From a virus (lineage: Duplodnaviria; Heunggongvirae; Uroviricota; Caudoviricetes): 64,000 bases of DNA. The DNA lies in the IMG/VR virus record IMGVR_UViG_3300005326_000042, positions 1-64,000 of that record; one strand, 5' to 3'. Both the position numbers and the translations under genes were made by a program. Positions 1,602 through 58,879 of this stretch are shown one piece after another (the first letter of the stretch is position 1; every line of letters begins with the position of its first letter). A model generated the notes under the pieces. It did not search any database. It had not been told where the DNA came from and worked only from the letters and a program-made list of their open reading frames with translations.

Positions 1602-2358
1602 TTGAGATTACCTTTAAAATTTCTTTTTCAAACATCTTATTGTAGTGAGAATTGACGCTTATTGTAGTTAAACTTCCGACTTTTAAATTCGTACTGTTTG
1701 CTACAAACTCTAATAATCGTGTTAATCCATACGCATTATTTTCATAAGCTCCCCAGAAATCGTGGCTTCTAAAACCTACAGTTAGATGTAAGATATCATT
1801 GATGCTACTCCAAACCAACCAATTCATACATGGAACTTCTTCCTTTCTGAGGTCTACTGATGGAATCCAAGTTGTACAAACCGCGCGGCGGGAGGATGGC
1901 GATTTCTTTAAAAGATCTATGATCTCGCTTATTTGGTCTATATATTCAGAATCAACCAGTTTTGTATCTTCAAAAGACACAAATTTTTGTTTAGATAGCC
2001 TAGACCGCCTCTTTCTAAGCCTCTCATGATAAGAGTACTCAAAAGGGAAATCGCTCTCTTTGGGGCCATTTATAAGCTGATCTGCATAAGAATCTAGATA
2101 ATTCAGATTATAAGGAGATAGATGAGCTTTATTTAGTTTTTTTAGTTCCTTTAAGTTCTCTAGTGGTTTCTTAATCGTCATCATCAGATTAAAGAAAACT
2201 TTGGTTTCATCTCCGCGCTCGTCGAGGTAATCTATTCCGTGGCAGTAGATTTGAGTTAAGCCTTGAACCCAAGCTTGTGAGATATGATCTACTTTTATGT
2301 GAGTGGACATAAAAGATAGAAAGGAGTTGGATTTATTTGTAGGATGGAAGGGATACAC
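1573..2358 (-). CDS. thymidylate synthase (ThyA) family enzyme, possibly pyrimidine hydroxymethylase variant
   Basis: SRRAV..W.PS.DL...PC(M) catalytic Cys region, FRSHD and NNAYGLTRL (ThyA RS.D and N..Y.L), NSHY (His207 equivalent); Asn at the dUMP-specificity position; PCM replaces canonical PCH. Confidence 0.65.
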   Translation of the reverse strand: MYPFHPTNKSNSFLSFMSTHIKVDHISQAWVQGLTQIYCHGIDYLDERGDETKVFFNLMMTIKKPLENLKELKKLNKAHLSPYNLNYLDSYADQLINGPKESDFPFEYSYHERLRKRRSRLSKQKFVSFEDTKLVDSEYIDQISEIIDLLKKSPSSRRAVCTTWIPSVDLRKEEVPCMNWLVWSSINDILHLTVGFRSHDFWGAYENNAYGLTRLLEFVANSTNLKVGSLTTISVNSHYNKMFEKEILKVISNEFPKTSSR

Positions 2359-3405: not shown

Positions 3406-3720
3406 TTAACTCTTCCCTTGCTTTAAATCCCATTCAATAGATACGTTTCTTAGATTCTTTTTGTCTTTTAAATAATTATAAACTTTTGTTTTAGAAATGT
3501 ATTTACCATATCTTTTTTCAACTATGTCCATAATAAAACAAAAGAACGGATCAAAACCTGATGCATAATAGTATGAAGATGTATCAAATCTATCCAAATA
3601 TTCCATATAATCATCTATGGTAAAATTCTTTAATATCCAACTAATGATTTCTTTTGGAGAGGTTTCGTATTGGGTAGACTCTCCGTAGATTTGATAACTA
3701 TTGGGAGCTAAGATGTTCAT
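3406..3720 (-). CDS. hypothetical protein
   Basis: Track ORF, 4-nt overlap with helicase gene. Confidence 0.4.
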   Translation of the reverse strand: MNILAPNSYQIYGESTQYETSPKEIISWILKNFTIDDYMEYLDRFDTSSYYYASGFDPFFCFIMDIVEKRYGKYISKTKVYNYLKDKKNLRNVSIEWDLKQGKS

Positions 3721-5453
3721 AGCATCGCCTCCTTTGCCAGCACGAATTCACTTAACTTCGTCTTCTTACTCAAAATATTCTCAACCCTCTTTTCAATTAC
3801 CGAAGATTTATCTCTAATTTCATAAAACTGCATCGAACTCTTCTGTCCAGATCTTTCAATGCGGCCTAGAAGTTGTTGATGTTTGGCTGGATTATAAGCT
3901 TTATTTACGGTTAGGAGAAGGTGACAATGTTGAAGGTTCAAACCTTCCGCACCAGCTTCACTCATCAGAAGAATCCTGGTATCTCCTCTAAACTTTTCTG
4001 ATTCTTTTTGAATGTCACATCCTCCAACAATCATTGCGGAAGGCTCTTTTAAAATGCATCTTCTTATAAGCTCTAAAGCTCTGACATAAGTGCTAAATAT
4101 GATAAGCTTTTCTCCGGCGGAATCATCGACTATCTCGATCACCTCTTGGAGCCTCGGAGTCAGAATTATGTCCTTTGGTTTTAGCTCTCCGCTTATGAGT
4201 TGGTCCACTCTTGCGGGAACTCCAGTTTGAATTCCGTCTCCTATTTCTTCTCCAAGGAATTTAGCCCAAATATCCTTAAATCCCCGATCTTCGAGAGGCG
4301 GAATCAAATCAGGGCTAATAACTGCCTCCCGCGCATACGTAAAATACCTGAGTATATTTTCTGGATCTTCCTTTGCAAGCTCGAACAACTTCTTCTCTAT
4401 TTCTTTCTGTTTTTTAGATGATTCTACCCAACGAACTATTGTATTAGACGGAGGTAGATTTAAACACTCTCTCTTCTCTTTTCTGAAAACTAATGGTTGA
4501 ATTAGTTGTCTAAATGTTTGGACATTTTTTTCTCCTCTCACGAGAATGTAAGGTTTCTGTTTCATTTTCATTGTTTTCTTGTCGAAATATTCTTTATATT
4601 TTATCTCTGTGATTAAAAACGCTTCTGCAAACTTGTCGTAATTTGGGAGGAAAGACGGATTTACCACATTAAGCACATTCCAGAACTCCGTGATTGAATT
4701 TTCGAGTGGCGTGCCTGTGAGTCCAATGCAATATTTGGCACTTTTCCTTAATTCCTTTGCACATTTTGTTCTTTTAGATGTCGGGGTTTTAATTCTCATA
4801 ATCTCATCAAAAATAAGGAAACCATTATCTAAGGATTCTATAGCCTGACACAGATCTTCAGGTTGTTTTAAGAGATCGTAGGAGCATATAGTATACTTTC
4901 TATCTAAGGATTGATTCCACTGTTTATCGCGCTTTGATCTGGATTTACCATCTATGACTATTTTCTGGTTATCAGGTATGTCCGCGAACTTAAGCAACTC
5001 TCCCGTCCACTGATATTTCAGACTACTAGGAACAATTACCATATTTTTAAGACCAAGGAATTCTGCATAACCGATAGCAGTCGGGGTTTTGCCACAACCA
5101 ATCGCCAAGGCCACCAACCCCGATCTTGCCTTCTTGCAGAATTCCAGAGCCTCGGTTTGATAGTCCAAAAGCATTTCAGTTTTAAAAGTACTCGGATATA
5201 CCCTCTCTGGAAACGGACCCATACACTTAGAATACTCTTCAAGTACAGCATTGGATATGTCCACTTCATCTAGAGTCTTAACTACATCTACTGTATGGGG
5301 TTCAAATTCCTTCTTGAACCAGAATTTTTGTAAAGTACTATATGTAAAGCCCAAAACTCCAAGTTTGTCTTTCAGTTTTAGAGTATCTTGACCAATTAAC
5401 GCAAGAACCCTTTCGGTAAACCCCTCTGGCTTTCCAAAGCGCATCTGTATCAA
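3717..5453 (-). CDS. SNF2/SF2 family DNA helicase
   Basis: Walker A GCGKTPTA, DExH-like box LIFDEIMRIK, motif VI QQLLGRIERSGQ, helicase C region LLMSEAGAEGLNLQ. Confidence 0.7.
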   Translation of the reverse strand: MIQMRFGKPEGFTERVLALIGQDTLKLKDKLGVLGFTYSTLQKFWFKKEFEPHTVDVVKTLDEVDISNAVLEEYSKCMGPFPERVYPSTFKTEMLLDYQTEALEFCKKARSGLVALAIGCGKTPTAIGYAEFLGLKNMVIVPSSLKYQWTGELLKFADIPDNQKIVIDGKSRSKRDKQWNQSLDRKYTICSYDLLKQPEDLCQAIESLDNGFLIFDEIMRIKTPTSKRTKCAKELRKSAKYCIGLTGTPLENSITEFWNVLNVVNPSFLPNYDKFAEAFLITEIKYKEYFDKKTMKMKQKPYILVRGEKNVQTFRQLIQPLVFRKEKRECLNLPPSNTIVRWVESSKKQKEIEKKLFELAKEDPENILRYFTYAREAVISPDLIPPLEDRGFKDIWAKFLGEEIGDGIQTGVPARVDQLISGELKPKDIILTPRLQEVIEIVDDSAGEKLIIFSTYVRALELIRRCILKEPSAMIVGGCDIQKESEKFRGDTRILLMSEAGAEGLNLQHCHLLLTVNKAYNPAKHQQLLGRIERSGQKSSMQFYEIRDKSSVIEKRVENILSKKTKLSEFVLAKEAML

Positions 5454-17649: not shown

Positions 17650-18972
17650 TTATTTCTCCTCTAATTTTCGCTTCTTTAGTTCCTTGTATTCTTCCTTAGT
17701 GTAATAAGATCTCCCTGAGTATATATAGTTTATGGATGTGTGGAAATTTTCTTCCCATCGTTGTCGGTCTCCATGCGTCGTTTTACTATGACACTTTTTA
17801 CAAAGTGGAACAAACATTACAATTTTATCATCACAACACGCATTTTTATCATATTCAACATGATGTACTGATAGTTCGCAGCCGTTCTCTTCTTTGCTTG
17901 TTCCACACATAAAACATTCGTTCTCAAAGAAATCTCTTACTCTCCGCCTCAAATCATTATTAAACTTAGGACAATATGGCTCAAAAGAGAGACCACCTTT
18001 CCAATTTGGGTTTTGTTCTCCTTTCTTTCCATACATTCCATTCTTTTCGCCCTTGTTAGATTCTGATATTTTAGCTTTAGTTTCCTCTGTATGACGTTTG
18101 CCAAAGAAAGTTGATTCTTCACCCCTTTTACCATAAAGGGGGTGCTCTTCACCTTTTCTCCTAAAAGCGGGGTCTTCCCTATTCTTTTGAGAAATAGACA
18201 TTTTCTTTTTAGTCTCGTCAGAAAACTTTTTCCCATAATTTGGAGATTTTTCACCACTTAAAACTTCCGAAAGTTTCTTTCTTGTTTCTTCTGGTAAATG
18301 TTTTCCAAACCAATGGTTTTTCTCACCTTTGTTCGCTTCAGAAATTTTTCTACGGGCTTCTGGAGAAGGGGAGTTACCTTTATTCTTCTCAGAAATTGTT
18401 TTCTTTGTTTCTTCTGTATGATGTTTTCCATACATACCGTTATTTTCTCCAGAATGGGCAATTGACATCTTTACTTTAGTTTCCTCACTCGCTTTCATTC
18501 CTCTATGGGCTTCCGCAATCTTCTCTCTATTTTCTGGATGACTCATTCTTTCTTTCGCTTTTTCAGAAAGTTTTTCTTTGGTTTCATCAGAAAGGTGTTT
18601 TCCAAAACGTGGATTTTCTTCTCCTTTTCTACCAAACATTGGATTATTTTCACCTTTATTAAGTTCTGCAAGTTTAGCTTTAGTTTCTTCCGTATGATGT
18701 TTCCCAGTCATTGGGCTTGGAACCCCATACATGGGATTATTTTCACCAGATAATTTCTGAGAAATGATTTCTTTTGTTTCTGGATGTTCTTGGTAATATT
18801 TTATTAAGGCTTCAGAAATCTTTCTTCCAATTTCTTTTGCGGGTTTTTTACCAAATAAGGGGTGATCCTTGCCTCTTCGTATCTTGTTTGGATTATCTTT
18901 GAAAAACTTCTTTTTAGATTCTGAAAGCTTTTTCTTAGATTCCTCACTCATCTTTTGTCCTTTTCTCATTCC
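17650..18972 (-). CDS. HNH homing endonuclease with multiple NUMOD3 DNA-binding repeats
   Basis: Repeated GKHHTEETK/GK.H.EE.K NUMOD3-like units; C-terminal HNH (HHVEYD...CKKCH); likely ATG at 18972 (track GTG at 18984). Confidence 0.65.
   Translation of the reverse strand, partial: GMRKGQKMSEESKKKLSESKKKFFKDNPNKIRRGKDHPLFGKKPAKEIGRKISEALIKYYQEHPETKEIISQKLSGENNPMYGVPSPMTGKHHTEETKAKLAELNKGENNPMFGRKGEENPRFGKHLSDETKEKLSEKAKERMSHPENREKIAEAHRGMKASEETKVKMSIAHSGENNGMYGKHHTEETKKTISEKNKGNSPSPEARRKISEANKGEKNHWFGKHLPEETRKKLSEVLSGEKSPNYGKKFSDETKKKMSISQKNREDPAFRRKGEEHPLYGKRGEESTFFGKRHTEETKAKISESNKGEKNGMYGKKGEQNPNWKGGLSFEPYCPKFNNDLRRRVRDFFENECFMCGTSKEENGCELSVHHVEYDKNACCDDKIVMFVPLCKKCHSKTTHGDRQRWEENFHTSINYIYSGRSYYTKEEYKELKKRKLEEK
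17990..18780 (-). repeat. intragenic tandem repeats encoding NUMOD3 units
   Basis: Periodic DNA repeats produce spurious ORFs in other frames (17949..18257, 18258..18461, 18505..18753). Confidence 0.5.
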
Positions 18973-19085
18973 TTCACCCTCCACGTTCCTTGGTCAAATC
19001 TGACCTTACATCGAGGGCAAGCTTTCGGATCGGCAACACGCGGAACCCATTTGTATAAACACTTAGGACATACTTTTTCTGTCAT
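18969..19085 (-). CDS. small zinc-ribbon protein, translationally coupled to HNH gene
   Basis: 38 aa; CPKC...CPRC; stop overlaps HNH ATG (ATGA); below track size cutoff. Confidence 0.4.
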
Positions 19086-20146: not shown

Positions 20147-21082
20147 TTATGCCTTCACTGGCACAACCGCTGGGTTTATGGCAGAATCGGCCATTGCAAC
20201 TATACTGGCTCCCTCTGGAACAAACACCTTAGTATTGTTGGCAAACGTCTTTTCCGTAGCTTCAAGCCTTCGGAGTTCTACCGCAGGCCCCTTGAAGGTT
20301 TCGTTTGCTGCATCGTTGACCTTCTTAATGGCTCCAGCCTTTGCGTCTGCCTCGATTGTGATTGCTTGAGCCTTACCTTCAGCCTTCTTAATTTCCGCTC
20401 TCTTCTCACCATCTGCTTTAGTCTCAACAGCAGTAGCGAAGTCAATCGCAGCCCTCTTTTCACTTTCAGCCTTAACGATATTATTCATTGCAGCCTGAAC
20501 ATCTTTCGGAGCGTCAATTTCGGCAATCTCACAACGTACAATCTCTATGCCCCAATCGGTGGTTTCTTTTGCAATAATTGTTTGTAGATCGATATTTAAT
20601 TTACTTCTCTGAGAATTCGCTTCCTTTAGGGTGAGTCCTCCAATTACATTTCTCAGAGTTGTTTGGGCAAGAGAAACTATCTGATACTCCACATCATTAA
20701 CATTATACTGAGAATTCTTTACACTTTCCTTATCGGCCTTAATCTTGTAATAAACCTGAGCACTTACACCAGCATTCAGATTGTCTCCAGTAATAACTTC
20801 CTGCCTATCGCAAGTTACCATTGTTTCCGTAATATCTACCAAATAGAATCTTTCTACAATTGGAATGCAAACTACCAATCCAGATTCTGCATACCGACTG
20901 AATTTTCCAAACCTCTCAATCACACATCTCTGAGTTGGTCTCACTTGCGCTACCGAATTCTTAAAAACAACTGCAACTACGGCCAGTAGCACAATAAATA
21001 CTACTGTACTTGCAACAAAACTTAAAATATCTCCCATAAAATCACCTACTATCTCTCTGTTCTCTATATTCTTCCCATTCAT
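20147..21082 (-). CDS. SPFH/band-7 (stomatin/prohibitin-like) membrane protein
   Basis: N-terminal TM helix then SPFH core (VRPTQRCVIERFGK...VDITE...TGDNL) and Ala/Lys/Glu coiled-coil tail. Confidence 0.65.
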   Translation of the reverse strand: MNGKNIENREIVGDFMGDILSFVASTVVFIVLLAVVAVVFKNSVAQVRPTQRCVIERFGKFSRYAESGLVVCIPIVERFYLVDITETMVTCDRQEVITGDNLNAGVSAQVYYKIKADKESVKNSQYNVNDVEYQIVSLAQTTLRNVIGGLTLKEANSQRSKLNIDLQTIIAKETTDWGIEIVRCEIAEIDAPKDVQAAMNNIVKAESEKRAAIDFATAVETKADGEKRAEIKKAEGKAQAITIEADAKAGAIKKVNDAANETFKGPAVELRRLEATEKTFANNTKVFVPEGASIVAMADSAINPAVVPVKA

Positions 21083-24177: not shown

Positions 24178-24414
24178 TTAACGCTCAGCTTCGCTAGGCA
24201 TCCGTACCCAAGTCCTAATTCTCGCTCCACTTGACAGAGTTTTGTTCACGTACATTGCCTCTCCATTCTTCCGCGCCGTCCACAATCTTTTAGAAACGGT
24301 TCTGGGATGAATACCTAATTTATCAGAAACCTCTTTTGCTCTTGGAGCATCTTCTGCGGTTTCTGGGAGAAAATTAACTATTTGTTCGCGAACAGTAATT
24401 GTGTCGTTTTGCAT
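24178..24414 (-). CDS. winged-helix transcriptional regulator
   Basis: LGIHPRTVSKRLWTARKNGEA HTH-like. Confidence 0.45.
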   Translation of the reverse strand: MQNDTITVREQIVNFLPETAEDAPRAKEVSDKLGIHPRTVSKRLWTARKNGEAMYVNKTLSSGARIRTWVRMPSEAER

Positions 24415-24415
24415 C

Positions 24416-25084
24416 TTAAAGTTTTCCCTCCCATTCCATCTTTCTTATCTTATAAAGATAATCCCTGAAAGGCTTCTCGTCTATTTCTAAAGGAAACGGG
24501 CTATCTTCAAACGCCTGATCAAGAGCGTCCAAGCACTTATTTACGTCTAATTCGCTTACGTCCAAGTTCACAATAGTCTCGCAAGGCTTAAAATTAAACT
24601 CCCATTTTGTTAGAAGATCCACTCCAAATAGAGCAGTCCTCGCGGCGGTTCTGTAACCTTTTCCACCAGCTAATCTAGGTCTCTTGGTTTCATCCAGCTT
24701 TTGACTTCCCGCCATGCCTTTTATTGCATAGTAATACTTTTTGGATGGATTATTAAGAACAATTTGTCTCAATTTTCTGAGCAGACCATAGTTCGAGGTA
24801 TTATCTTCTATAACTATAGAACTCGTCACATGCCACAAATAGTTTATGTTTCCTCTGAGGAGCTGATTTATTAGTTGTCCTATCTCAACGTAAGAGCAAT
24901 CACAATCTACTCCGTCTTTTAGAAAATGGGTTTGTGCCCATGTTTCCGGAATCCTATATCCAGCCAAAATATTCTTTGTTGGAACTACTCGACACGTAGA
25001 ATAATCGTGATCCGATATTCCCGACTTAAACATTCCCCACATAGAAGAACCATGTTCTGTAGTCCAGAGATCTTTAGGTTCCAT
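24416..25084 (-). CDS. Pol-beta-superfamily nucleotidyltransferase
   Basis: GS-x11-DHD signature (HGSSMWGMFKSGISDHD) near N-terminus; 222 aa. Confidence 0.5.
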   Translation of the reverse strand: MEPKDLWTTEHGSSMWGMFKSGISDHDYSTCRVVPTKNILAGYRIPETWAQTHFLKDGVDCDCSYVEIGQLINQLLRGNINYLWHVTSSIVIEDNTSNYGLLRKLRQIVLNNPSKKYYYAIKGMAGSQKLDETKRPRLAGGKGYRTAARTALFGVDLLTKWEFNFKPCETIVNLDVSELDVNKCLDALDQAFEDSPFPLEIDEKPFRDYLYKIRKMEWEGKL

Positions 25085-25399
25085 TCAGATAACCCCTTAA
25101 ATACTCTTTCCCTTCATCCAGAGTTCTAAACTTCTCATCTATTTGGGCTTCGTACATAGTTTTAAGTATATAACTGTAGTTGGGTCCAGGTTCTATTCCC
25201 AGTTCCATAAGGTGTCTACCCATAATGATAGGTTTGGTTTCATTCTTGATGTCATCGTAGATATCTAAAACATCCAGTAACCTGTTGTATTCTGGTAGGT
25301 CGTCTATTTTTGGTCCGCTTCTGGAAACTTGTGTTTTACGATTGCGCCGCTCGCATGACCATCGAGGTCACTTGCATGAAAAAAGCACTTTATTGCCAT
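25085..25399 (-). pseudogene. interrupted small gene (frameshift at A5 run): DHH-like N-terminal motif plus tRNA-NTase C-terminal-like motif
   Basis: Frame A MAIKCFFHASDLDGHASGAIV... stops after 33 codons at CAAAAATAG; -1 frame continues ...IIMGRHLMELGIEPGPNYSYIL...EGKEYLRGYL with no start of its own. Confidence 0.35.
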
Positions 25400-25400
25400 T

Positions 25401-25784
25401 TTAATTCATCTCCCCCAACCGTTTCTCTAAAATTTTCTCAAAATCTTCCACTCCATACTTGCCGTTCTCTACGTAGATAAACCCTTCGGCCAGCAACCGA
25501 TTTAGAGAGTTAGATATGGTTTCCCTCAGATAGATCTTTCCGAGAACAGATACAAGTTCTTTATGTGATATATCTGGATTTTCCTTAATGAAATCGTATA
25601 CATCACAATCGATGTCTACGGATTTCAAAATCGGATTTCTAGGACTGTAGATGCCATTATTATTACAGTACTTCGCAACGGTATCCGCAGCTACTCCAAA
25701 ATCTCGCGCGATATCTTCGTAGGTTCTGATTTGAAGTTGTTCTTCCAGCCAGATTAAGTCTTTGTTAAAAAGAGTTTGTTTCAT
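25401..25784 (-). CDS. HTH DNA-binding protein
   Basis: TYEDIARDFGVAADTVAKY HTH resembling N-termini of the HNH paralogs. Confidence 0.45.
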   Translation of the reverse strand: MKQTLFNKDLIWLEEQLQIRTYEDIARDFGVAADTVAKYCNNNGIYSPRNPILKSVDIDCDVYDFIKENPDISHKELVSVLGKIYLRETISNSLNRLLAEGFIYVENGKYGVEDFEKILEKRLGEMN

Positions 25785-29416: not shown

Positions 29417-29917
29417 TCACACCAGCTTCAAACTCTTCGTAATCTTCTTCAACTCATCGGTCTGTTTAAACCCAATACAAGTCATCGTCCCTAGAGGAAC
29501 TTCGGTAAGTCCTGCATCTTTTATGTAGACAACATCATCAAGAGTTGCAAGTTCCTTAAATGTCTCATGGTCTGCCTTAAGAATTATTGCTCTTCCAAGA
29601 CAGTTATATTTGTCCGCGAGCTGCATTGCTATATGGGAAATTTGTGCAGCAATTTTTCCTTTAGACATCTTCAAGCTTTCGTCGATTACGTAGATGAAGG
29701 TTGTGGAGAGGTCAACTTGTCTTGATATCATATTATCTTCAGAATAACGGTGTCTATGACAAAAACAAGTTCCAGCTATTGCGCCGCAGATTCCACAACG
29801 AAAAATATCGTGGTGGCCCGCGAATCCAAAATGTTCTTGACAATAAAAGGCGTTTCTATCTGAGTCAAATGTTCCAGGTTTACCACATTTAACGCATTTA
29901 TTATTTTCGTTATTCAT
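29417..29917 (-). CDS. zinc-finger fused to peptidyl-tRNA hydrolase PTH2 (archaeal/eukaryal type)
   Basis: N-terminal CVKCG...CQEH...CGICG...CFCHRH; then PTH2 core TFIYVIDESLKMSKGKIAAQISHIA and ...DAGLTEVPLGTMTCIGF. Confidence 0.65.
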   Translation of the reverse strand: MNNENNKCVKCGKPGTFDSDRNAFYCQEHFGFAGHHDIFRCGICGAIAGTCFCHRHRYSEDNMISRQVDLSTTFIYVIDESLKMSKGKIAAQISHIAMQLADKYNCLGRAIILKADHETFKELATLDDVVYIKDAGLTEVPLGTMTCIGFKQTDELKKITKSLKLV

Positions 29918-40005: not shown

Positions 40006-40875
40006 TTAAGCCTTTCTAAGTTTGTGACTTTTTCTTATAGCTTCTCCCTTTCTACTACAATTACAGTTTGCACATTCAAGTCTATAATCCTCTTTTAAAG
40101 ATTCGGGCCAGCCTTGTTGACGAAAATTGGAGAGCAATGCCGTACTATTGCGCTCTCCATTTCTTCTCCGCTCCGCGCCATCGTTATGTATGTGAGAGAT
40201 AGTTAAAAATTTTAATTCCGTTATTCCACATGGACAACCACCAAAGAATTCAAAAGCTTCTTTCCAGAGTTTAGCTGAGTATCTTTGATTTTTAGTTTGC
40301 AATTCCCAAGGTAAATCCAAATATTCCCTTCTTCTCGCCAAATTATGATTCCAACATAAAACTCTCAGATTAGATAATTTATCTTTCGGATAAGTATCAT
40401 TAGTAACGGCTAGACGTAAGGAATGTCCACTATATCCCTTCTTCTTGTCGATATATCCTGTCTCATCGATATGGTCTACGGTTAAATAATCGGGATTAGT
40501 CACATTACAAAGAGAACATTTACAGCCACCCAAGATTTCAAGTACTTGAATTTTATTTTCTTCGCGATATTTTTTATGGTGTTCTTTTATTTTATCTTTA
40601 TTTTCATTATAATACCTTTTCCCGTATTCTTTATTATGTTCTTTATTTTCCTTATAATACTTTTTTCCACATTCTTTCCTGTGCTCTTTATTTTCTTCAC
40701 GATATTTTATATCGTATTCTTTTTTGTGTTCTTTGTAGTTTGGATTATCCCAATTAGATATCGTTTGTTGACACACTCCACATTCCTTAGCTATTTCTCC
40801 CTGACTTTTCCCAAAAACATTAATTTGGAGATCCAACCATTCTTTATTTTGATAAATAGGTTTTTCTTCACTCAC
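40006..40875 (-). CDS. HTH + double HNH-motif endonuclease, paralog 1
   Basis: N-terminal KEWLDLQ...IAKECGVCQQTISNW HTH; K/E/Y repeats; GGCKCSLC...VDHID...LRVLCWNHN and GGCPCG...ISHIHND...ECANCN; GTG start after AGGAGGT. Confidence 0.6.
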   Translation of the reverse strand: MSEEKPIYQNKEWLDLQINVFGKSQGEIAKECGVCQQTISNWDNPNYKEHKKEYDIKYREENKEHRKECGKKYYKENKEHNKEYGKRYYNENKDKIKEHHKKYREENKIQVLEILGGCKCSLCNVTNPDYLTVDHIDETGYIDKKKGYSGHSLRLAVTNDTYPKDKLSNLRVLCWNHNLARRREYLDLPWELQTKNQRYSAKLWKEAFEFFGGCPCGITELKFLTISHIHNDGAERRRNGERNSTALLSNFRQQGWPESLKEDYRLECANCNCSRKGEAIRKSHKLRKA

Positions 40876-41303: not shown

Positions 41304-42125
41304 ATGACAAATAAAGCTTTACTTGCGGGAATCAATGCCTATATGCAATCTCCGCTTAGAGGTTGCATCAACGATGTACTTGATGTAGAGAACTATTTAC
41401 TAGGAAAGAATTTCCAGTGTACCAAACTTCTCGACTCTTCCGCCACCAAACCCAATATTCTAAATGGACTTAACACACTTATAAACGGAAGCCACGCAGG
41501 AGATGTATTGGTGTGGTATTTTAGCGGCCACGGATCTTACATTTTAGATAATAATGGAGATGAAACAGACGATCAATATGATGAGTGCTTGATTTCTTAT
41601 GACTACTTCACAAACGGAAATTTCATTCGTGATGATGATTTAGCTGAAATATTTACAAGAATTCCAGAAGGAGTTTTAGTTGAGTGTATCCATGACTCCT
41701 GCTTTTCAGGAGATTCCACAAAACTATTTAATGATCTAAATTCAAATACCCGTTTTGTAGATATCGATACTAATTCTATAGATTTAAAATCTTCTGCTTC
41801 AAAATATATTCCTATCCAGCTTTCTAGACCTAAAAAGAAAGTTGTGAAAATTGGAAGGATAGGACATAAAGTCAGTAATATTACCATGAACCACATCTTA
41901 TCAAGCGCCTGTGGTGAAACTCAGACTTCAAGCGAGGTTCGGGTAAACGGTCAATATCGCGGAATTTTTACATACCTGCTTACAAGAAGACTCAGACTTT
42001 CTCCAACTATGAGCCGATCTGGAGTAATAAGTAATGTTCGAGCAAACCTTGCTGCACTAGGGTTGTCACAAATACCTATGTTAGAGTGTATCGATAGTGA
42101 AAAATTAGAGCCTTATTTCTCATAA
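41304..42125 (+). CDS. caspase-like cysteine peptidase (peptidase C14 / metacaspase family)
   Basis: Catalytic His in VLVWYFSGHGS and catalytic Cys in IHDSCFSGDS in caspase order (His before Cys); N-terminal KALLAGINAY; SD GAGGT. Confidence 0.65.
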   Translation: MTNKALLAGINAYMQSPLRGCINDVLDVENYLLGKNFQCTKLLDSSATKPNILNGLNTLINGSHAGDVLVWYFSGHGSYILDNNGDETDDQYDECLISYDYFTNGNFIRDDDLAEIFTRIPEGVLVECIHDSCFSGDSTKLFNDLNSNTRFVDIDTNSIDLKSSASKYIPIQLSRPKKKVVKIGRIGHKVSNITMNHILSSACGETQTSSEVRVNGQYRGIFTYLLTRRLRLSPTMSRSGVISNVRANLAALGLSQIPMLECIDSEKLEPYFS

Positions 42126-48075: not shown

Positions 48076-48617
48076 CACTGCCTGCCCCCAAATTTCTCTA
48101 GGATGGGCGTCAGACAAATGTCTAGCGCCATTCCTCGGAAATGGCATTCGTGCATTGTTACGAGCGACGCGACCGCACGCTCCTCCTCAATTTCTGGAGT
48201 GGTGACCTCCCCGAGGTCGATCAATGCCTGGACAACCCAGTCAGGCATGGTCTCTATCGGGGTCGCTGGCTCCTGTGGCCACCATGGGCACCCCTGATTT
48301 GGCGGGGTAACTCGGAATCGCTGTATCTTCCCATCTTGGAAAGATACGAACTGGTAATATTGATCGTTTATCCCATACCAGGTGGCAATTACGCAACCTG
48401 GATGAGCTTTCAGCCAGTTATCCCAATCGTCCCATCCCACTCGAAGGGATGTCTCCCCGGCTATTCTCTCATGATCCGTACTCGCTGTTATCCAGCGAGA
48501 GTCAGTCCCATGATGGGACTGAAACGTTTTGCTCTCACCCGGTTGGGGCTCTTTCCGCCCCTTCATACTATCTCTCATATTTGGCATAGCATCTACTAGT
48601 ATCTCATAGTATATCAA
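48075..48617 (-). CDS. hypothetical protein (GC-rich operon)
   Basis: Start uncertain (possibly internal MPNMRD). Confidence 0.35.
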   Translation of the reverse strand: MIYYEILVDAMPNMRDSMKGRKEPQPGESKTFQSHHGTDSRWITASTDHERIAGETSLRVGWDDWDNWLKAHPGCVIATWYGINDQYYQFVSFQDGKIQRFRVTPPNQGCPWWPQEPATPIETMPDWVVQALIDLGEVTTPEIEEERAVASLVTMHECHFRGMALDICLTPILEKFGGRQ

Positions 48618-49006
48618 TGTATCGCCTTAATCAGTGTGTACTTTTGCCACCTACCATTCAGGTACATCAAGCAGAACAAGGACTATAGGAATAGAAAACA
48701 ACGCCTACCGATATCGGTTATAAAACAGCAAAATCGACCCTCTGATATCGATGTGCTTCTAGGATAGAATCTTGGCTGGAAGTACATGATTATCGAGGTA
48801 GCTCTGCCCTCCAAAAGAGCTTTTCACAGATAACCAATAGCAGTAAAACCACGCACTGCGAACAATGGACGCCCCAATGACTGTTCATAAGAATCCAATC
48901 GGAGAAACTAACAATCGAAATTATCCTCATTGAGAAATAAAATCTACTAAAAGAGAAGAAACCATCCATCGAAATCTTTTTATAGTAATAGATATATTAA
49001 TTCATT

Positions 49007-50725: not shown

Positions 50726-51538
50726 TTATACTACATATTTTTTACTAAGGTTGCAGTTAGCACATTCTAATCTGTAATCTTCTTTCAGAGTTTCGGGCCA
50801 ACCTTGTTGGTAGAATCTTTCTAATAATCTGATTCCAGTCTTTTCTCCGTTTTTTCTTTGCTCCGCCCCATCGTTGTGAATGTGGGAGATTGTTAAAAAT
50901 TTTAGTTCTGATATTCCACAAGGGCAAGGACCGAAGAAATCAAATGCCATCTTCCAAAATTTAGTTTGTCGTCTTTGTTGTCTTGTCTGGAGGGTGGGTG
51001 GAAAATCTAAATATTCTTTTGTCCTTCCAAGATTATGATTATAACACAATACCCTTAAATTAGATAATTTTTCTTGTGGATAAATCTTATTTAAAATTGC
51101 AGAATATAAAGATATACTATATAATCCGTCTTTCCTATCTAGGTGTCCTGTTTTATCGATATGATCTATTGACAGAAAGTCCACGTTGGTCACATCACAA
51201 AGACTACATTTACAGCCTCCAAGAACATTTAATACCTGAATCTTTATGTTTTTTCGATATTCTTTTACTTTATATTTATTTTTTTCTTTCTGTTCTTTTA
51301 TTTTTTCTCTATTTTCTTTATAATAACTTTCTTGATATTCTTTTATTTTATGCTTGTTTTCTTCCCGATATTCTTTTTGTCTTTTTCTATTGTGTTCATC
51401 GCTCCAATAAGATATTGTAGACTTACCCACTCCACACTCTTTTGCAACTTGTCTTTGGTTCTTTTTCAAAACATTTAATTGATAATCCAACCATTCTTTA
51501 TCTCGATAAAGAGGTTCTTCTTTCTTAAAACCACTCAT
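50726..51538 (-). CDS. HTH + double HNH-motif endonuclease, paralog 2
   Basis: Same architecture as 40006..40875 (KEWLDYQ...VAKECGV...TISYW; LRVLCYNHN; ECANCN). Confidence 0.6.
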   Translation of the reverse strand: MSGFKKEEPLYRDKEWLDYQLNVLKKNQRQVAKECGVGKSTISYWSDEHNRKRQKEYREENKHKIKEYQESYYKENREKIKEQKEKNKYKVKEYRKNIKIQVLNVLGGCKCSLCDVTNVDFLSIDHIDKTGHLDRKDGLYSISLYSAILNKIYPQEKLSNLRVLCYNHNLGRTKEYLDFPPTLQTRQQRRQTKFWKMAFDFFGPCPCGISELKFLTISHIHNDGAEQRKNGEKTGIRLLERFYQQGWPETLKEDYRLECANCNLSKKYVV

Positions 51539-53126: not shown

Positions 53127-53600
53127 TCATTCAAATATCTCCTCATTAATCTCATATTTCCCTTTAACCCGAACACATTTCGGATATGTCATAATTTCCT
53201 TAACCTTAAAGGATCTCTCTTCGGATTTATACTTTTCGTAAACATCTAAAAAAGGAACAAAATAAGAGATTCTTTTCTTCCCTACTCCCTCTCTGCACTC
53301 AACTACGAGGTATCCCTTGCGCCCTGAAAAATCTAGGAAAAAATGTTCTTTGTCAATTTGATGCACACCTTCTGATTCTGAGAATCTTGAACGAAAATTT
53401 AGTGTACCATATTTTGCAGTATTGATAGATTTACATTCTAGAAAGTAGTAGTATTTTTTGTCCGCGCTGTCGCTTAGAATGTCCGCCCATTGCCCTTTAG
53501 AATATTGTGATTGAAACAAACGGTAGCAGAGGGCTTTAATGTTATTTTCTTTATAAAAAAAGTTTAGAGATTTCGCAATCTCGTTTTCCATTGAGGTCAT
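53127..53600 (-). CDS. PD-(D/E)xK nuclease-like protein (Hjc/RecB-family-like, tentative)
   Basis: DILSDSADKKYYYFLECKS and LVVECREG resemble D-x(n)-E-x-K core. Confidence 0.35.
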   Translation of the reverse strand: MTSMENEIAKSLNFFYKENNIKALCYRLFQSQYSKGQWADILSDSADKKYYYFLECKSINTAKYGTLNFRSRFSESEGVHQIDKEHFFLDFSGRKGYLVVECREGVGKKRISYFVPFLDVYEKYKSEERSFKVKEIMTYPKCVRVKGKYEINEEIFE

Positions 53601-53633: not shown

Positions 53634-53834
53634 TTAACTAATCAAATCCTTCAGTTCCCCAATCAACCTCACAACATCCTCGTGCGAGAGAAGGACACTT
53701 GTCCAATGTTGATCTCTTTCTCTCCAAACGAGAACTTCAAAGGTTCCCGCATCTTTATCTGCGGGGCTAAAAGAAACTGTATTTTTACATTCTCCGCAAA
53801 CGCATTTGAAATCGGTCATAACAACACTACCCAA
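53634..53834 (-). CDS. hypothetical Cys-containing small protein
   Basis: Track ORF. Confidence 0.35.
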   Translation of the reverse strand: MGSVVMTDFKCVCGECKNTVSFSPADKDAGTFEVLVWRERDQHWTSVLLSHEDVVRLIGELKDLIS

Positions 53835-53861
53835 CTCTTACCAAACAATTCAACATACATT

Positions 53862-54245
53862 TTACTCACCATATAGCCACTCAAAGAAATCTAAATACAT
53901 AGAATAAAAATAACTTACGGGTTCTTGAATATCTTCCCAATTAGTTAAGGTTTCGTGGCTTAGTGTTTCTCGAAGTTCCTCTTTTCTATCTAATCTTCCT
54001 CTTTTGCCGCCTTTGAGGGGTTTCTTTCTGGTGTTTAACCTGCTCTGGGTACACCAAGAGCATTTGCAATGACCCTCGGTTTGTTTATAGGGATGGTATC
54101 CGATCCAAGGAAGGAACCATTTTGTGTATTTATACTCCAGCTCCTTGAGATCTTCGGCAGTAAGTTTTTGGCTCTTAATCCATCCCTTAAAACCTGGGCC
54201 GCCAATGATGGGTTCTTTATTGTAGGTTCTTCGCGTTTTGGTCAT
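53862..54245 (-). CDS. hypothetical basic protein
   Basis: Start moved to MTKTRRTY so it does not read through the tRNA-like element. Confidence 0.4.
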   Translation of the reverse strand: MTKTRRTYNKEPIIGGPGFKGWIKSQKLTAEDLKELEYKYTKWFLPWIGYHPYKQTEGHCKCSWCTQSRLNTRKKPLKGGKRGRLDRKEELRETLSHETLTNWEDIQEPVSYFYSMYLDFFEWLYGE

Positions 54246-54248
54246 ATA

Positions 54249-54296
54249 CGGGCGCGGCAAGAATCGAACTTGCTATGAAAACCAACTTTCGCGCCC
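54249..54296 (-). other. tRNA-derived minihelix (acceptor stem + T-arm only)
   Basis: GGGCGCG-AAAGTTGGTTTTCATA-GCAAG-TTCGATT-CTTGC-CGCGCCC-G: perfect 7-bp acceptor helix and 5-bp T-stem with TTCGATT loop; no D or anticodon arm. Confidence 0.45.
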
Positions 54297-54365
54297 AAAA
54301 AAAATAAATAAAACTAGGCAACCCCGCCTAGCCAAAGGATAGATCTATGCCTCCAAAATCCTTCC

Positions 54366-54773
54366 TCACATCAACCCCCAACTATCCCTCAATATCCCAT
54401 CGTACACGGCGTCCATATCAGGCTCTTGCCAGTTTTCTACATTCGTGTTTAGGGTGAATAGTAGGTCATAATCCATGCTGAACCAATCTGACATCATCGG
54501 GTCATAGAAATCGTTGTAAACGCTCTGAATCCCATCAAGATTATCCGTAGTCTGCTGGCTTGTGGTATCTGTGAAGAATATTGAACCATCGTCTCCGACT
54601 ACCATCTCCGAGTTCATGAATACGTCTTGCCAGGTTACTAGATTGTTGTTATCTCCCCAATAGTTGTCTCCCTCCAACAATGGATCTGTATATGCCATCG
54701 TCGTTGGTATTCCTACCGCTATACCTGCTGCCAGTATCAGCAGCAACACTATTCTATATGCTTGCATTTTCAT
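54366..54773 (-). CDS. secreted protein
   Basis: Signal peptide MKMQAYRIVLLLILAAGIAVG. Confidence 0.45.
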   Translation of the reverse strand: MKMQAYRIVLLLILAAGIAVGIPTTMAYTDPLLEGDNYWGDNNNLVTWQDVFMNSEMVVGDDGSIFFTDTTSQQTTDNLDGIQSVYNDFYDPMMSDWFSMDYDLLFTLNTNVENWQEPDMDAVYDGILRDSWGLM

Positions 54774-55053
54774 ACCTCAGTGTCGAATTAAAATCATTAA
54801 ATATAGCCATCCCGTTCGAATTTGCTCTCATCGCCCGCGTTTCTGTGATTGTGCCATTCCTGGTTAGAGCCACAACCACGCTATAATTTCCGCTTTCCTG
54901 CCAGGCGATAAATGTTAGCCCATCATCACTTAGATTTCCAACGAAACCTTTTACCACCAAAGGGTTTCCCTTTGTGTCATATGGAAGACGTATTGCTGCG
55001 GTCGCTGTTGTCATTAATAGCAGGAGTATTAATATTATTGGTATGGCTTTCAT
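54754..55053 (-). CDS. secreted/membrane protein
   Basis: Internal start MKAIPIILILLLLMTTATAA taken as true start. Confidence 0.35.
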   Translation of the reverse strand: MKAIPIILILLLLMTTATAAIRLPYDTKGNPLVVKGFVGNLSDDGLTFIAWQESGNYSVVVALTRNGTITETRAMRANSNGMAIFNDFNSTLRYENASI

Positions 55054-55235
55054 GTCTTTTCCCTCTTTAACCGCTCTATTTCGTCCTTCAACCGTTCTAT
55101 CTCTACCATCAGTTTCGGGTAGTCCTTGATTAATGCGTTCAGTGCCCTCCCTTGGTTTGAATGTCTCTCTTGTATCTTGTAATCTTTGAGTATATTGTGT
55201 GCTTCGTCGTCTAAGTCCTCGTTGATCTTTGGCAT
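55050..55235 (-). CDS. coiled-coil small protein
   Basis: Track ORF. Confidence 0.35.
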   Translation of the reverse strand: MPKINEDLDDEAHNILKDYKIQERHSNQGRALNALIKDYPKLMVEIERLKDEIERLKREKT

Positions 55236-55258
55236 AAGTAATTATTAGGTAATTATTA

Positions 55259-55627
55259 CTACTTAAAACTTTGCTCTCCCGAAGAAGTTTTATACGGAAC
55301 AATCTTTAATCCAGTGACATACATATTCAATCTGAGAACTTTTACGTCATTTTTAACAGAAGTGATTACTTCTCCAGAAAATCCTACAAATATTGGTTCT
55401 TCATTAGGTCCAGTTTTCATATAATGAAGATTTTCTATGAACTTCGAGTCCTCAGATGTTACAATCCTTGCGGAAATAGTAATATCCGTATAAAGCCCAT
55501 CTTCTCCATGAATGTAGTAGATAGCTTTTGCCAAACTTTTGTCTATTAAATCCACAATAACGGATTCTCTTTGAGTTTTTAGCTCTTCCATCTGGGTTTC
55601 ATTATTTTTGAGGTCAGAAATTTTCAT
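55259..55627 (-). CDS. hypothetical protein
   Basis: Track ORF. Confidence 0.4.
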   Translation of the reverse strand: MKISDLKNNETQMEELKTQRESVIVDLIDKSLAKAIYYIHGEDGLYTDITISARIVTSEDSKFIENLHYMKTGPNEEPIFVGFSGEVITSVKNDVKVLRLNMYVTGLKIVPYKTSSGEQSFK

Positions 55628-55786
55628 TTATAATCTCCTGAGCGTAATATCTTTTAAAATTATCTCTTCTTTCGCGAAGGAATCTACGAATTTTCCAAGT
55701 CAAACAATGTCGGCACGCGGAGAATTTGTTTAATCTCGCGTGGCCTGAGTTGCGGAGGGTGTGAGACATGATAAGATTTTCCTACT

Positions 55787-55963
55787 TCAACTCTTATCAA
55801 ACATTTCCTCCATTGGAATTTCTACAGGGGCCCAATCTTTCTGTCCTTCAAGTTTATAATATCCTACAAAAGACAACTCCTGTAATTCATTTTCTTTAAA
55901 ATGTGCTTTAATTCCTATATCTTCACTGAAGATGATGGTAACGTATCCGTACATAGATATCAT
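55787..55963 (-). CDS. hypothetical protein
   Basis: Track ORF trimmed to internal ATG so it does not translate the tRNA. Confidence 0.35.
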   Translation of the reverse strand: MISMYGYVTIIFSEDIGIKAHFKENELQELSFVGYYKLEGQKDWAPVEIPMEEMFDKS

Positions 55964-56076
55964 GGGCAAGGTAGGATTTGAACCCACATCGCGAGTTTTG
56001 GAACACACGACATCGGTCGTGTTAGAGCAAAACTAAAGTTTTGCGACTCGCTACTTATCCAATTAGTGACATGCCC
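55963..56076 (-). tRNA. putative intron-containing tRNA (anticodon CCA/Trp or CAA/Leu depending on intron placement)
   Basis: 5' GGGCATG pairs with 3' CTTGCCC + discriminator A; T-arm GTGGG-TTCAAAT-CCTAC; anticodon stem CGAGT/ACTCG; about 42-nt insert with two perfect 7-bp hairpins; 114 nt; no encoded CCA. Confidence 0.5.
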
Positions 56077-56402
56077 GATAAATTTTGAACTGTTAACCTT
56101 CTTTCAGCTATATCGATCTCAACTATGTAGCATATTTTTGGTGGTTGAGTTTCTGATATTCGCTTACTCTGGGCTGCAACCCGCGTCCATACACAGCAAG
56201 GTTTGGACTCCAGTTATTAGATGCTGGCAAACTCTTTGGACACCAGATCCCAATCTAAAACGTTGGGTCAGCAAATCATATTCCAGAGGTGGAATCAATG
56301 CCAATATCTGGGTTATCTTTTGATAACTATGAACCGGAAACGAATTAATTCGTTTCCGACGTTTTATCTGCGGAGTTAGCTTGCCTCCACTGAAGAATAT
56401 AC

Positions 56403-57509
56403 TTAATCCTTCTTGGTATTTATACTTTCCGCTTCCTCGCGACTTGTCACACAATAGGACATCACATTAGACCCGCCAGATGTCCATCTTCGCCTTCTGG
56501 GAATAGTAGATGGAGACGTAGTAAACGGCTGAACCGCGTATGCACTTACCTCATAAGGTTGCGACCAAGGATCTGTATCATCCTTCTCGGACCCAAAATC
56601 CTCTGGATTTGTTATAGGGACGACCTTTTCAAGAATCTCTCTTGTTGTTCCATCAACCTTTTCGGGAACCAACTTCTTAGTCTCTACCTTCTCATCACTG
56701 GGATACTCAATAAAATCGCGACAACATTTTCTATCACATGGGCCAAACCTTATATTCCTAAATCCAGGTTCCCAGATATTCGCAAGAGATTCTTTGAGCA
56801 GATTTCCCCAAGTATATAGACCAGTTGAATTGTAAGACCTCTCCGACAGACAGGTAATTACATCTCCATTATAGAGAATAGAACAAGATCTTATTCCAGC
56901 AGAACACGTGTGTTCAGACTGTAGATTGTCCGCGAGAACATAACTTACATTCTTCAGGCTTCGTATCTTGTCTCTAAGATACTTAATTCCATCTGCCAAA
57001 AGTTGATATTCTGATCCCATAGTAAGCTGAATCTGCCAGAGCTTAAAGTTCTTCGCGATTTCCGCCAGTTTATCAAATTCCCAGATATTGTGAGACCCGA
57101 AGTTTGTAACTATGGTTATATTATCGCAATATTCTGTTGTCGTAACAACGTGGTCTTCTTTATAGTCTGAAGGGAAATTAACCGATAATCCAATGCAGTA
57201 AACTTTATCCCAAGGAATAAATTTATCAAATATTCCACCGTTTGATATAATTTTAACCTTACATCCCGAATTATCTAGTATCTCTATTACTTGAGATAAC
57301 AACTCATCTGATAGAGTCGAAGGTTCTCCTCCCGTAAGAGTCACTTCATTCACTTTATATTCAACGATTCGTTCTGCGATTTTTAGAACTTGGTCGTCTG
57401 ACAAAGGTTCATTTTTAGTTATATCCTTAGAGCCGCAGTACTTACAGTTTTTGTTACACTTGGGTGTAATTTCCCAAAGTATTTCTTCTAGTTTTAAAAT
57501 AGGTTGCAT
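56403..57509 (-). CDS. radical SAM enzyme with C-terminal SPASM/twitch-like Cys cluster
   Basis: CNKNCKYCG (CxxxCxxC) at residues 18-26; later CSAGIRSC...C...C.RKCC cluster; 368 aa with low-complexity tail. Confidence 0.6.
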   Translation of the reverse strand: MQPILKLEEILWEITPKCNKNCKYCGSKDITKNEPLSDDQVLKIAERIVEYKVNEVTLTGGEPSTLSDELLSQVIEILDNSGCKVKIISNGGIFDKFIPWDKVYCIGLSVNFPSDYKEDHVVTTTEYCDNITIVTNFGSHNIWEFDKLAEIAKNFKLWQIQLTMGSEYQLLADGIKYLRDKIRSLKNVSYVLADNLQSEHTCSAGIRSCSILYNGDVITCLSERSYNSTGLYTWGNLLKESLANIWEPGFRNIRFGPCDRKCCRDFIEYPSDEKVETKKLVPEKVDGTTREILEKVVPITNPEDFGSEKDDTDPWSQPYEVSAYAVQPFTTSPSTIPRRRRWTSGGSNVMSYCVTSREEAESINTKKD

Positions 57510-57737
57510 TTCTTAATCACCTGAAAAGAGACTTATTTAGAAAAGATATGTTAAAGTATTTAAAGATATTGGTTCTTTCAATCTCTCCTAATTTTCTCCC
57601 AGCAAACTCTGCCATACCTACCGCCGAAAATCTTAGTTATTTTCCTTCTGCAACGGGCACATCGCCTTGGAGCAGAAGATTCTTTGGGTTTTTCGGTGGA
57701 TTGCATATATGGAGATTATCTGGCTTAGGATAAATAG

Positions 57738-57959
57738 TTAATCCTCGGAATACAAACTTCCTTCTTCGATATGTAGATCATTTAGTGGAGCACTACAGAC
57801 ATTTCCTTCTGTAATGTGCTCATACATTTCTAGTTCCATGATATCTTCATCTTCAAATCCTTGCGCGAATGCTTTATCTATTGCTTCTTCTTTACTGTCG
57901 GCTTCGATTTCTAGGCTTACGTATCCTGCTATTGGGATGTCAACTACGTATTTGGGCAT
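57738..57959 (-). CDS. small acidic protein (candidate rSAM substrate)
   Basis: 73 aa, pI acidic, single Cys, directly upstream of rSAM gene. Confidence 0.35.
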   Translation of the reverse strand: MPKYVVDIPIAGYVSLEIEADSKEEAIDKAFAQGFEDEDIMELEMYEHITEGNVCSAPLNDLHIEEGSLYSED

Positions 57960-58030
57960 ATGAGTAGATTATCTGGTTTAAGATATAAAGGTTTTGGGAG
58001 GACGGTTGAAATTATGGAGTATAAGATTAT

Positions 58031-58879
58031 TTAAAGAACACCTGTCTGTTTGCTTCGCTCCTTTTTAATTCTTCTACCACAATTGCAGTTTGCGCACTCT
58101 AAACAATAGTCTTCTTTTAAGGATTTGGGCCAACCTATTTTGTTGAAATCCATAAGTAAACGCACCCCAGTATGTTCCCCCTTCTTTCTTTTCTTGTTGC
58201 CATCATCATTTTTGTGCGATACTTGAAGAAATTTTAACTCCGTGATTTCGCAAGGACAACCGCCAAATAAGCTAAAAGCTTGGTTCCAAAGTCTAGTATA
58301 ATATTTTTGAATAGTAGTTTGTAATTCGGGTGGGATATCTAAATATTCTTTTTGTCTGCCATCATTATGATTCCAGCAGAGAACTCTGAGATTTGATAGT
58401 TTTTCTTTTGGATAAGTTCCTCGCGCAACAGAAATGTATAATTTTCTTCCCCCAAATCCAGATTTCTCATCTAAATAACCAGCTGAATCTATATGATCTA
58501 TTGTGAGTAGATCCGTATCGGTTATATCACATAACTGACATTTACAGCCGCCTAAAACTTCAAAAGCAGCCTTTTTAATATTTTGAGTATATTCTCTTCT
58601 TCTTTTACTTATCGCTTCTGAATTATTTCTTGCGTATTTTCTGGCGTGCCCTTTTAGGCGTTCTTTATTATTTTTTCTATAAATCTTAAAATAATTGTTA
58701 AAATGTTCTTTATTATTCTGCCGATATTGCTTCTGTGAATCATCATACCAATAAGATATGGTTGTATAGCAAACCCCACACTCTCTTCCAATTTGTGCAT
58801 AGCTTTTTCCTAAAACCTCAATTTGTTCCTTCAACCATTCTTTATCTCTATACCGCAGATCTTTTTCAGACCCGCTCAT
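58031..58879 (-). CDS. HTH + double HNH-motif endonuclease, paralog 3
   Basis: KEWLKEQ...IGRECGVCYTTISYW; GGCKCQLC...IDHID...LRVLCWNHN; GGCPCE...ECANCN. Confidence 0.6.
   Translation of the reverse strand: MSGSEKDLRYRDKEWLKEQIEVLGKSYAQIGRECGVCYTTISYWYDDSQKQYRQNNKEHFNNYFKIYRKNNKERLKGHARKYARNNSEAISKRRREYTQNIKKAAFEVLGGCKCQLCDITDTDLLTIDHIDSAGYLDEKSGFGGRKLYISVARGTYPKEKLSNLRVLCWNHNDGRQKEYLDIPPELQTTIQKYYTRLWNQAFSLFGGCPCEITELKFLQVSHKNDDGNKKRKKGEHTGVRLLMDFNKIGWPKSLKEDYCLECANCNCGRRIKKERSKQTGVL

Follow-up and report, generated by a model that had tools for sequence, protein, structure and literature searches.

Interrupted tRNAs and tRNA-like elements of archaea and their viruses

Intron-bearing tRNAs of archaeal viruses, tRNA-like processing elements of archaea and tRNA pseudogenes, which are common in viruses, are already known. 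Among the tRNAs of Euryarchaeota, tRNA-Trp is the classic case with an intron (PMC4090602, PMC7714728), and the intron of tRNA-Trp(CCA) in Haloferax volcanii nests a box C/D RNA. No archaeal splicing endonuclease works without a bulge-helix-bulge (BHB), and in Haloferax-type Euryarchaeota the alpha2 enzymes accept only the strict hBHBh' form (PMC7714728). Within a BHB, the central 4-bp helix includes the pairs of the intron with the first and second bases of the anticodon (PMC4090602). The haloarchaeal tailed virus HGTV-1 is known to carry an intron-bearing tRNA (PMC13532342), tRNA-Ala(UGC) with a 31-nt intron. Archaeal t-elements, for example the one upstream of the Haloferax 5S rRNA, are cut by RNase P and tRNase Z, for which the acceptor/T-arm domain is enough (PMC4326828).

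The element described here is a tRNA-Trp-like gene in a 64,000-nt stretch of tailed-virus DNA (IMG/VR record IMGVR_UViG_3300005326_000042, positions 1 to 64,000), hereafter the window. Comparison with the intron-containing tRNA-Trp(CCA) of archaea showed a common isotype, anticodon, A73 and G1-C72 pair. Both are interrupted in the anticodon loop and have an archaeal genetic context, and the AGUUUUG of the window insert is complementary to the anticodon region. However, the window insert is located at 31/32 or 32/33 rather than at 37/38, has neither a BHB nor a box C/D motif, is 42 nt long compared with a median of ~65 nt, and consists of two self-contained hairpins without exon pairing. The HGTV-1 tRNA-Ala(UGC) is likewise an archaeal tailed-virus tRNA interrupted in the anticodon loop, but its intron is canonical (position 37/38, a perfect hBHBh' and an ARAGORN score of 115.7 at default settings), whereas the window element has none of these properties.

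Like the archaeal t-elements, the window element is an acceptor/T-arm mimic with no decoding capacity as encoded, placed beside an RNA whose end it would define; a second element of the window, a minihelix at 54249-54296, fits this comparison especially well. The tRNA-Trp-like gene differs from the t-elements in that it keeps a full cloverleaf and a recognisable Trp anticodon and resides in a virus rather than in a cellular operon, and its processing is a prediction. The tRNA pseudogenes of viral tRNA clusters similarly combine a low-scoring body (here a U.U mismatch and a 3-bp D stem), a disrupted loop, a variable region and a lack of conservation. In comparison with these, the window insert is highly ordered (z = -4.9), and a canonical loop returns when exactly these 42 nt are taken out. 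Judged from the sequence of this single instance, the position on the 5' side of the loop, the two-hairpin architecture and the absence of a BHB are unusual in combination.

A tRNA-Trp-derived gene with an ordered 42-nt insert

The element derives from tRNA-Trp and is a real gene; its insert of 42 nt is ordered and has no BHB. Its parts are as follows:

55963-56076, minus strand: tRNA-Trp(CCA)-like gene of 114 nt, CCA end not encoded (Rfam RF00005; ARAGORN on the form spliced in silico)
56070-56076, minus strand: acceptor stem 5' strand GGGCAUG, paired with CUUGCCC at 55964-55970 with one U.U mismatch
56052-56067, minus strand: D arm with a 3-bp stem (ACU/AGU) and G18 G19 in the loop
56046-56051, minus strand: anticodon stem 5' strand (G)CGAGU, paired with ACUCG(C) at 55991-55996
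56003-56044, minus strand: 42-nt insert for the 32/33 junction (56004-56045 for the equivalent 31/32 junction)
56027-56044, minus strand: hairpin 1, GCAAAAC-UUUA-GUUUUGC, unique in the window
56005-56022, minus strand: hairpin 2, ACACGAC-CGAU-GUCGUGU, unique in the window
55999-56001, minus strand: putative anticodon CCA inside single-stranded GUUCCAAA
55971-55987, minus strand: T arm GUGGG-UUCAAAU-CCUAC
55963-55970, minus strand: acceptor 3' strand CUUGCCC and discriminator A73

A preliminary description of the DNA had proposed a tRNA at this place, and the arms that it listed are all present on the minus strand: the acceptor stem GGGCATG/CTTGCCC-A with one U-U mismatch, the 3-bp D stem, the CGAGT/ACTCG anticodon stem, the canonical T arm, and 49 nt with two perfect 7-bp hairpins between the strands of the anticodon stem. 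The mismatch of the acceptor stem is U6.U67, with A73 next to the stem, and the anticodon stem CGAGU/ACUCG can be lengthened to 6 bp as GCGAGU/ACUCGC. The anticodon "loop" as encoded is thus 49 nt long and harbours both hairpins, and the 7-nt loop of a tRNA arises only after removal of 42 nt. The tRNA covariance model, named in the preliminary description as a check, matched exactly 55963-56076 of the minus strand over model positions 1-71, with 30.9 bits against a gathering score of 29 for RF00005 and an E value of 0.018 (window x 4227 families). No other Rfam family matched in the 64-kb window, permissive thresholds included.

In its minimum free energy (MFE) fold, at -38.4 kcal/mol (z = -4.1), the 114-nt RNA is a cloverleaf in which the anticodon arm branches at a three-way junction. 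The isolated insert folds at -16.3 kcal/mol (z = -4.9), and none of 2000 shuffled sequences was as stable. Two loci of the window have a pair of adjacent perfect 7-bp hairpins, where 0.13 per 64 kb would be expected. The 3' arm of hairpin 1 (AGUUUUG, RNA positions 43-49) has two possible partners, the start of the insert (GCAAAACU) and CAAAACU at 55994-56000 (RNA positions 77-83), which belongs to the anticodon/3' stem region. An origin of the insert from a local duplication or inversion of the tRNA 3' half was rejected, the 7-mer similarity being not significant, and so was a repeated mobile element, both hairpins being unique in the window. The other locus with adjacent hairpins (48481-48522, plus strand) lies within a ~400-nt non-coding stretch (48420-49006) and adjoins a GC-richer segment at 44-48 kb (GC 0.47 vs. 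~0.37 elsewhere), which is possibly a horizontally acquired region.

ARAGORN at default settings did not call the unspliced gene, with introns allowed or not. A call obtained at the 90% threshold (94.5) was discarded as noise, since 84 such calls, with scores up to 97.5, were found in 2.56 Mb of random sequence.

The insert lacks the hallmark of archaeal BHB introns

The interruption had been taken for an archaeal-type intron in the preliminary description. The BHB search used a script that looks for two 3-nt bulges flanking a 4-bp central helix, with strict and relaxed (2-4 nt) bulges, at all junctions and in suboptimal folds. Only one of the four central-helix pairs can form at 32/33, none at 31/32 and two at 37/38. 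None of the tRNA-yielding junctions has a BHB, bulges of 2-4 nt included, and no half-BHB (HBh' or hBH) is present among the 61 structures whose energy lies no more than 5 kcal/mol from the MFE. The same script applied to the HGTV-1 tRNA-Ala, which ARAGORN calls at default settings, recovers the hBHBh' and ranks the true 37/38 junction first, with all four central pairs, five outer pairs and four inner pairs. Thus, the intron claim found no support at any junction considered, near-optimal folds included. The insert is probably not an ordinary archaeal spliced intron, and it would not be expected to be cut out by an archaeal splicing endonuclease, since these enzymes need a BHB.

Other intron types were not matched either. 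Both box C (RUGAUGA) and box D (CUGA), which are typical of the tRNA-Trp introns of euryarchaea, are missing from the insert, and no ribozyme or intron family of Rfam matches the element at E values up to 10. A group I intron was rejected on size, the insert being 42 nt compared with ~200 nt or more for a self-splicing core (P1-P9), and on the lack of a family match. Among the 60 ORFs of at least 100 aa in the 64-kb window, which belongs to a genome of perhaps 130-140 kb, none encodes an EndA, an RtcB or a polynucleotide kinase. Two ORFs in the window encode RNA ligases of the Rnl family (PF09414; 547-1308 and 6801-7526, both minus strand). The haloarchaeal tailed virus HCTV-1 (KC292029) has its own annotated RtcB RNA ligase (24321-25772), which shows that archaeal viruses can carry ligases for tRNA splicing or repair.

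Isotype of the tRNA body

All 1324 distinct products of excision from the gene were enumerated and scored with ARAGORN. Only the excision of 42 nt at 31/32 or 32/33 restores a functional-looking tRNA, a tRNA-Trp(CCA) called at default settings with a score of 106.6. The Trp(CCA) assignment that had been offered for a 31/32 excision, with the loop UUCCAAA, is therefore borne out, and the 32/33 excision, with the loop CUCCAAA, is equally good. The two junctions are indistinguishable because both loop variants are found in genuine tRNA-Trp genes. A Trp-specific covariance model, for which five genuine tRNA-Trp genes of viruses were used, anchors the anticodon loop on its 3' UCCAAA. The 5' part is aligned only locally and poorly, and the model gives no resolution between 31/32 and 32/33.

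Over 99% of its length, the spliced 72-mer shows 77% identity to an annotated tRNA-Trp of a Stenotrophomonas jumbo phage, with which it shares the acceptor stem, U.U mismatch included, and the T stem. Many partial matches of the 72-mer span the proposed junction. The discriminator base is A73 in the window gene and in the tRNA-Trp of the archaeal virus HGTV-1, and G73 in all four of the aligned bacterial-phage tRNA-Trp genes. Trp identity at the discriminator follows a domain-specific rule, which the A73 of the window gene fits.

The preliminary description had also considered a tRNA-Leu(CAA) with an intron at the canonical 37/38 position, as the 5' part of the loop reads CGCAAA and excision at 37/38 would leave the loop CGCAAAA. 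This assignment is scarcely credible. The loop has G33 in place of U33, the variable loop of 3-4 nt is far from the long variable arm of tRNA-Leu (the HGTV-1 tRNA-Leu genes are 84-86 nt long), the ARAGORN score of 96.7 is below the default threshold, only two of the four central BHB pairs are present at 37/38, and the tRNA body matches tRNA-Trp genes. Membership in the class II tRNA-Leu genes, for which both the long variable arm and U33 are absent, is effectively refuted.

A CUA (amber, Pyl-type) tRNA can be drawn in an alternative fold, in which AGUUUUG and CAAAACU form the anticodon arm with the loop CUCUAAC, and hairpin 2 serves as an intron of 20 nt at 37/38. For the product of removing hairpin 2 alone, ARAGORN at default settings reports a tRNA-Pyl(cta) with a score of 103.2, and pyrrolysine is used by some Methanosarcinales. 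However, this fold needs a different, mismatched acceptor stem, leaves almost no D arm, lies far from the MFE and forms two of the four central BHB pairs. In addition, TAG is a normal stop codon here (15 genes), with a coding density of 0.85 under the standard code, and a Pyl-type tRNA has next to no likelihood.

The virus and its probable host

The window encodes genes of a large tailed virus, including an NrdD, an SNF2 helicase, a D5/PriL-type primase-helicase, a PrimPol, an ATP-dependent ligase, a tail-spike-like protein and many HNH/NUMOD endonucleases. The contig was recovered from a JGI metagenome, and it is carried by JGI sample 3300029959 and two further samples. No near relative was found in the phage collection or in IMG/VR. 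Judged by the protein relationships, the host is probably an archaeon, most likely Methanosarcinales-like, as indicated by the relatives of NrdD, the PTH2 and the PriL-like primase. The named cellular relatives of NrdD are all Methanosarcinales, mostly Methanothrix (46-49% identity), the best matches of the N-terminal part of the primase are a Methanosarcinales virus and Methanoculleus viruses, and an ORF at 29417-29917 (minus strand) encodes a peptidyl-tRNA hydrolase of the PTH2 (archaeal/eukaryotic) type. A TATA-box-like motif, "YTTAWATAC", is enriched approximately three-fold and also counts as evidence for an archaeal host. The preliminary description had read the insert as a clue to the host. 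The archaeal-like context stands (NrdD, PTH2, primase and A73), whereas the insert itself does not serve as a marker: because it has no BHB, the pointer to the host is the proteins rather than the tRNA insert.

The Trp codon TGG is used 17.3 times per 1000 codons in the whole window, the stop codons are TAA (41), TGA (54) and TAG (15), and motifs resembling SD sequences precede 61 of the 111 predicted genes. The PTH2 and the two PF09414 RNA-ligase ORFs resemble a small toolkit for translation and RNA repair. Further ORFs encode a caspase-domain protein (Peptidase_C14; 41304-42125, plus strand) and an SPFH/Band-7 protein (20147-21082, minus strand). Homing-endonuclease-like ORFs are located at 17650-18984, 40006-40875, 50726-51538 and 58031-58879, all on the minus strand; one has six NUMOD3 repeats, the others are HNH-like with an HTH, and one borders the accessory island described below.

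A virus-specific island with a second tRNA-like element

The tRNA-Trp-like gene is located in an accessory island with the following features:

53634-58879, minus strand: virus-specific accessory island of ~5.3 kb, with both tRNA-like elements, an rSAM-SPASM gene and an HNH-like ORF
56077-56402, minus strand: structured non-coding spacer of 326 nt between the rSAM gene and the tRNA
54249-54296, minus strand: second tRNA-like element, an acceptor/T-arm minihelix of 48 nt (Trp covariance model 23.1 bits, E ~2e-4)

The four sister-virus loci contain no homologue of any ORF of the island. Only the flanks of the island, a 157-aa ORF (53127-53600) and PrimPol, are shared at the locus. The 326-nt spacer is stably folded (z = -3.2; none of 100 shuffled sequences as stable) and contains a perfect 24-nt palindrome, CGGAAACGAATTAATTCGTTTCCG, at 56335-56358; no gene was called in it and no Rfam family matched.

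The second element reads GGGCGCG-16 nt-GCAAG-UUCGAUU-CUUGC-CGCGCCC-G. Its 7-bp acceptor stem and its T arm are both perfect, a D arm and an anticodon arm are absent, and a hairpin and a U-tract (54297-54332) precede it. A purpose-built scan for tRNA top halves found exactly two matches in the window, namely the two elements of the island, and none in the sister loci or in 2.56 Mb of random sequence; as a control, the true tRNAs of an unrelated phage locus were recovered. In structural terms, both window elements possess the acceptor/T-arm domain predicted to suffice for RNase P and tRNase Z. Both are also close to the start of a downstream ORF. The discriminator A of the tRNA-Trp-like gene is the A of the ORF's ATG, with an in-frame ATG 9 nt on (55952-55954), and the ATG behind the minihelix is 4 nt past its discriminator.

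Relatives of the locus

The sister viruses, reached via PrimPol (41-44% identity) and NrdD (72-76% identity) on contigs of 51-142 kb, contain no tRNA in ~120 kb of DNA. Sister viruses have an IS605/TnpB-like gene right beside PrimPol (L016, 8856-9995; L018, 13431-15215), and inteins are present in homologues of the DNA methylase, NrdD and PrimPol (proteins P0086, P0152, P0208 and P0209 among the sister-virus entries). The neighbouring rSAM-SPASM gene shares 53% identity or less with its relatives, beside which no tRNA was found. One such homologue, in IMG/VR UViG_3300035698_005697, has a tmRNA gene directly upstream (3599-3974, plus strand; 68 bits), and the adjoining full tmRNA places that relative in a bacterial context.

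Pattern scans of IMG/VR, JGI metagenomes and GTDB genomes with the tRNA halves, the T-arm/acceptor part and hairpin 2 gave nothing or matches at chance level. The matches inspected were rejected, one being inside a coding region (L019), one a bacterial tRNA-Tyr (L022) and one in a Rickettsiales MAG (L023). The sole other public copy of hairpin 2 in the IMG/VR scan is a chance match in a coding region. A scan of metagenomes with the PrimPol protein gave no match. The metagenome contig Ga0172381_10054719 was rejected as a relative, being unrelated to the virus at the protein level. This AT-rich, phage-like contig has two odd tRNA-like elements of 53 nt and 94 nt (1826-1986, minus strand), one of which has an acceptor stem and T arm nearly as in the window tRNA and only one further arm.

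Possible fates and origins of the interrupted gene

The best explanation, to which about an even chance is given, is a non-decoding RNA derived from tRNA-Trp, representing a tRNA gene that was disabled recently or else a processing element for RNase P/tRNase Z. The two-hairpin insert of 42 nt on the 5' side of the loop would turn the anticodon arm into a stable three-way junction. With no BHB, the insert would stay in, and the transcript would most likely not be a decoding tRNA. RNase P and tRNase Z should still cut both ends, since the acceptor/T-arm half is intact, as at the archaeal t-elements. Cleavage of the ends would yield two products, a stable tRNA-like RNA of 114 nt and, downstream of it, an mRNA with 0-9 nt ahead of its AUG; trimming by tRNase Z and RNase P would thereby fix where the downstream message begins. 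The absence of a BHB and of box C/D motifs, the absence of an EndA, RtcB or kinase from the window, and the absence of the island from the sister viruses count for a non-decoding RNA. However, two perfect 7-bp hairpins are unlike the content of a decaying pseudogene, so that the insert should be recent or selected, which counts against it. The exact 42-nt excision that restores a textbook CUCCAAA or UUCCAAA loop also looks purposeful, the virus would profit from a working tRNA-Trp because Trp codons are fairly frequent (17.3 per 1000), and the two Rnl-family ligases could serve unconventional splicing.

The same observations support a functional tRNA-Trp(CCA), the foremost though doubtful alternative, in which the insert is removed at 31/32 or 32/33 without a BHB, by a relaxed host endonuclease or by another nuclease together with the host RtcB or a viral Rnl-type ligase. 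Removal of the 42 nt gives a tRNA-Trp at the default threshold with a canonical loop, the isotype is the one most classically interrupted in Euryarchaeota, HGTV-1 provides a precedent for an intron-bearing tRNA in an archaeal virus, the insert is highly structured with perfect hairpins, and the window has both two RNA-ligase ORFs and 17.3 TGG per 1000 codons. Against such a tRNA stands the lack of a BHB or half-BHB in any geometry or near-optimal fold, with a perfect result for the control. The position is also non-canonical, cleavage of such a junction is not known for any archaeal enzyme (PMC7714728), the window is without EndA or RtcB, and no conserved homologue was found for covariation. 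It is rather unlikely that the insert is the footprint of an event at the DNA level, such as a MITE- or PATE-like palindromic mobile element, an integration scar or a template-switch insertion into a viral tRNA-Trp gene, the hairpins mattering as DNA (protein-binding palindromes) or not at all. Such an origin is compatible with both a non-decoding RNA and a functional tRNA. Both hairpins are perfect DNA palindromes, the island is variable and lies next to an HNH-like ORF, sister viruses have IS605/TnpB genes near PrimPol, and most of the insert lies between copies of CAAAACU, a direct repeat of 7 nt. However, the hairpins have no further copies in the window and no true copy in IMG/VR (where only hairpin 2 was scanned), the similarity of insert to exon is not significant (29-68 of 500 shuffled sequences were as good), and deletion of one CAAAACU repeat with the interior leaves a 6-nt loop and no tRNA. 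Unlikely as well, finally, is a novel tRNA intervening sequence that is independent of a BHB, handled for example by nucleases leaving 5'-P/3'-OH ends and a viral Rnl ligase, or a tRNA body used as a scaffold to deliver a two-hairpin viral RNA. If either were true, an archaeal virus would use tRNA-like elements, two of them in one island, in a way that has not been described.

Implications

The comparison cautions against automatically taking a long insertion in an anticodon loop for an "archaeal intron" or a marker of the host; here, the proteins identify the host domain. A structured insert that the known archaeal splicing machinery would be expected to miss may document the death of viral tRNA genes. 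Alternatively, it may point to an unrecognised route of RNA processing or to tRNA-like punctuation signals in archaeal viruses.
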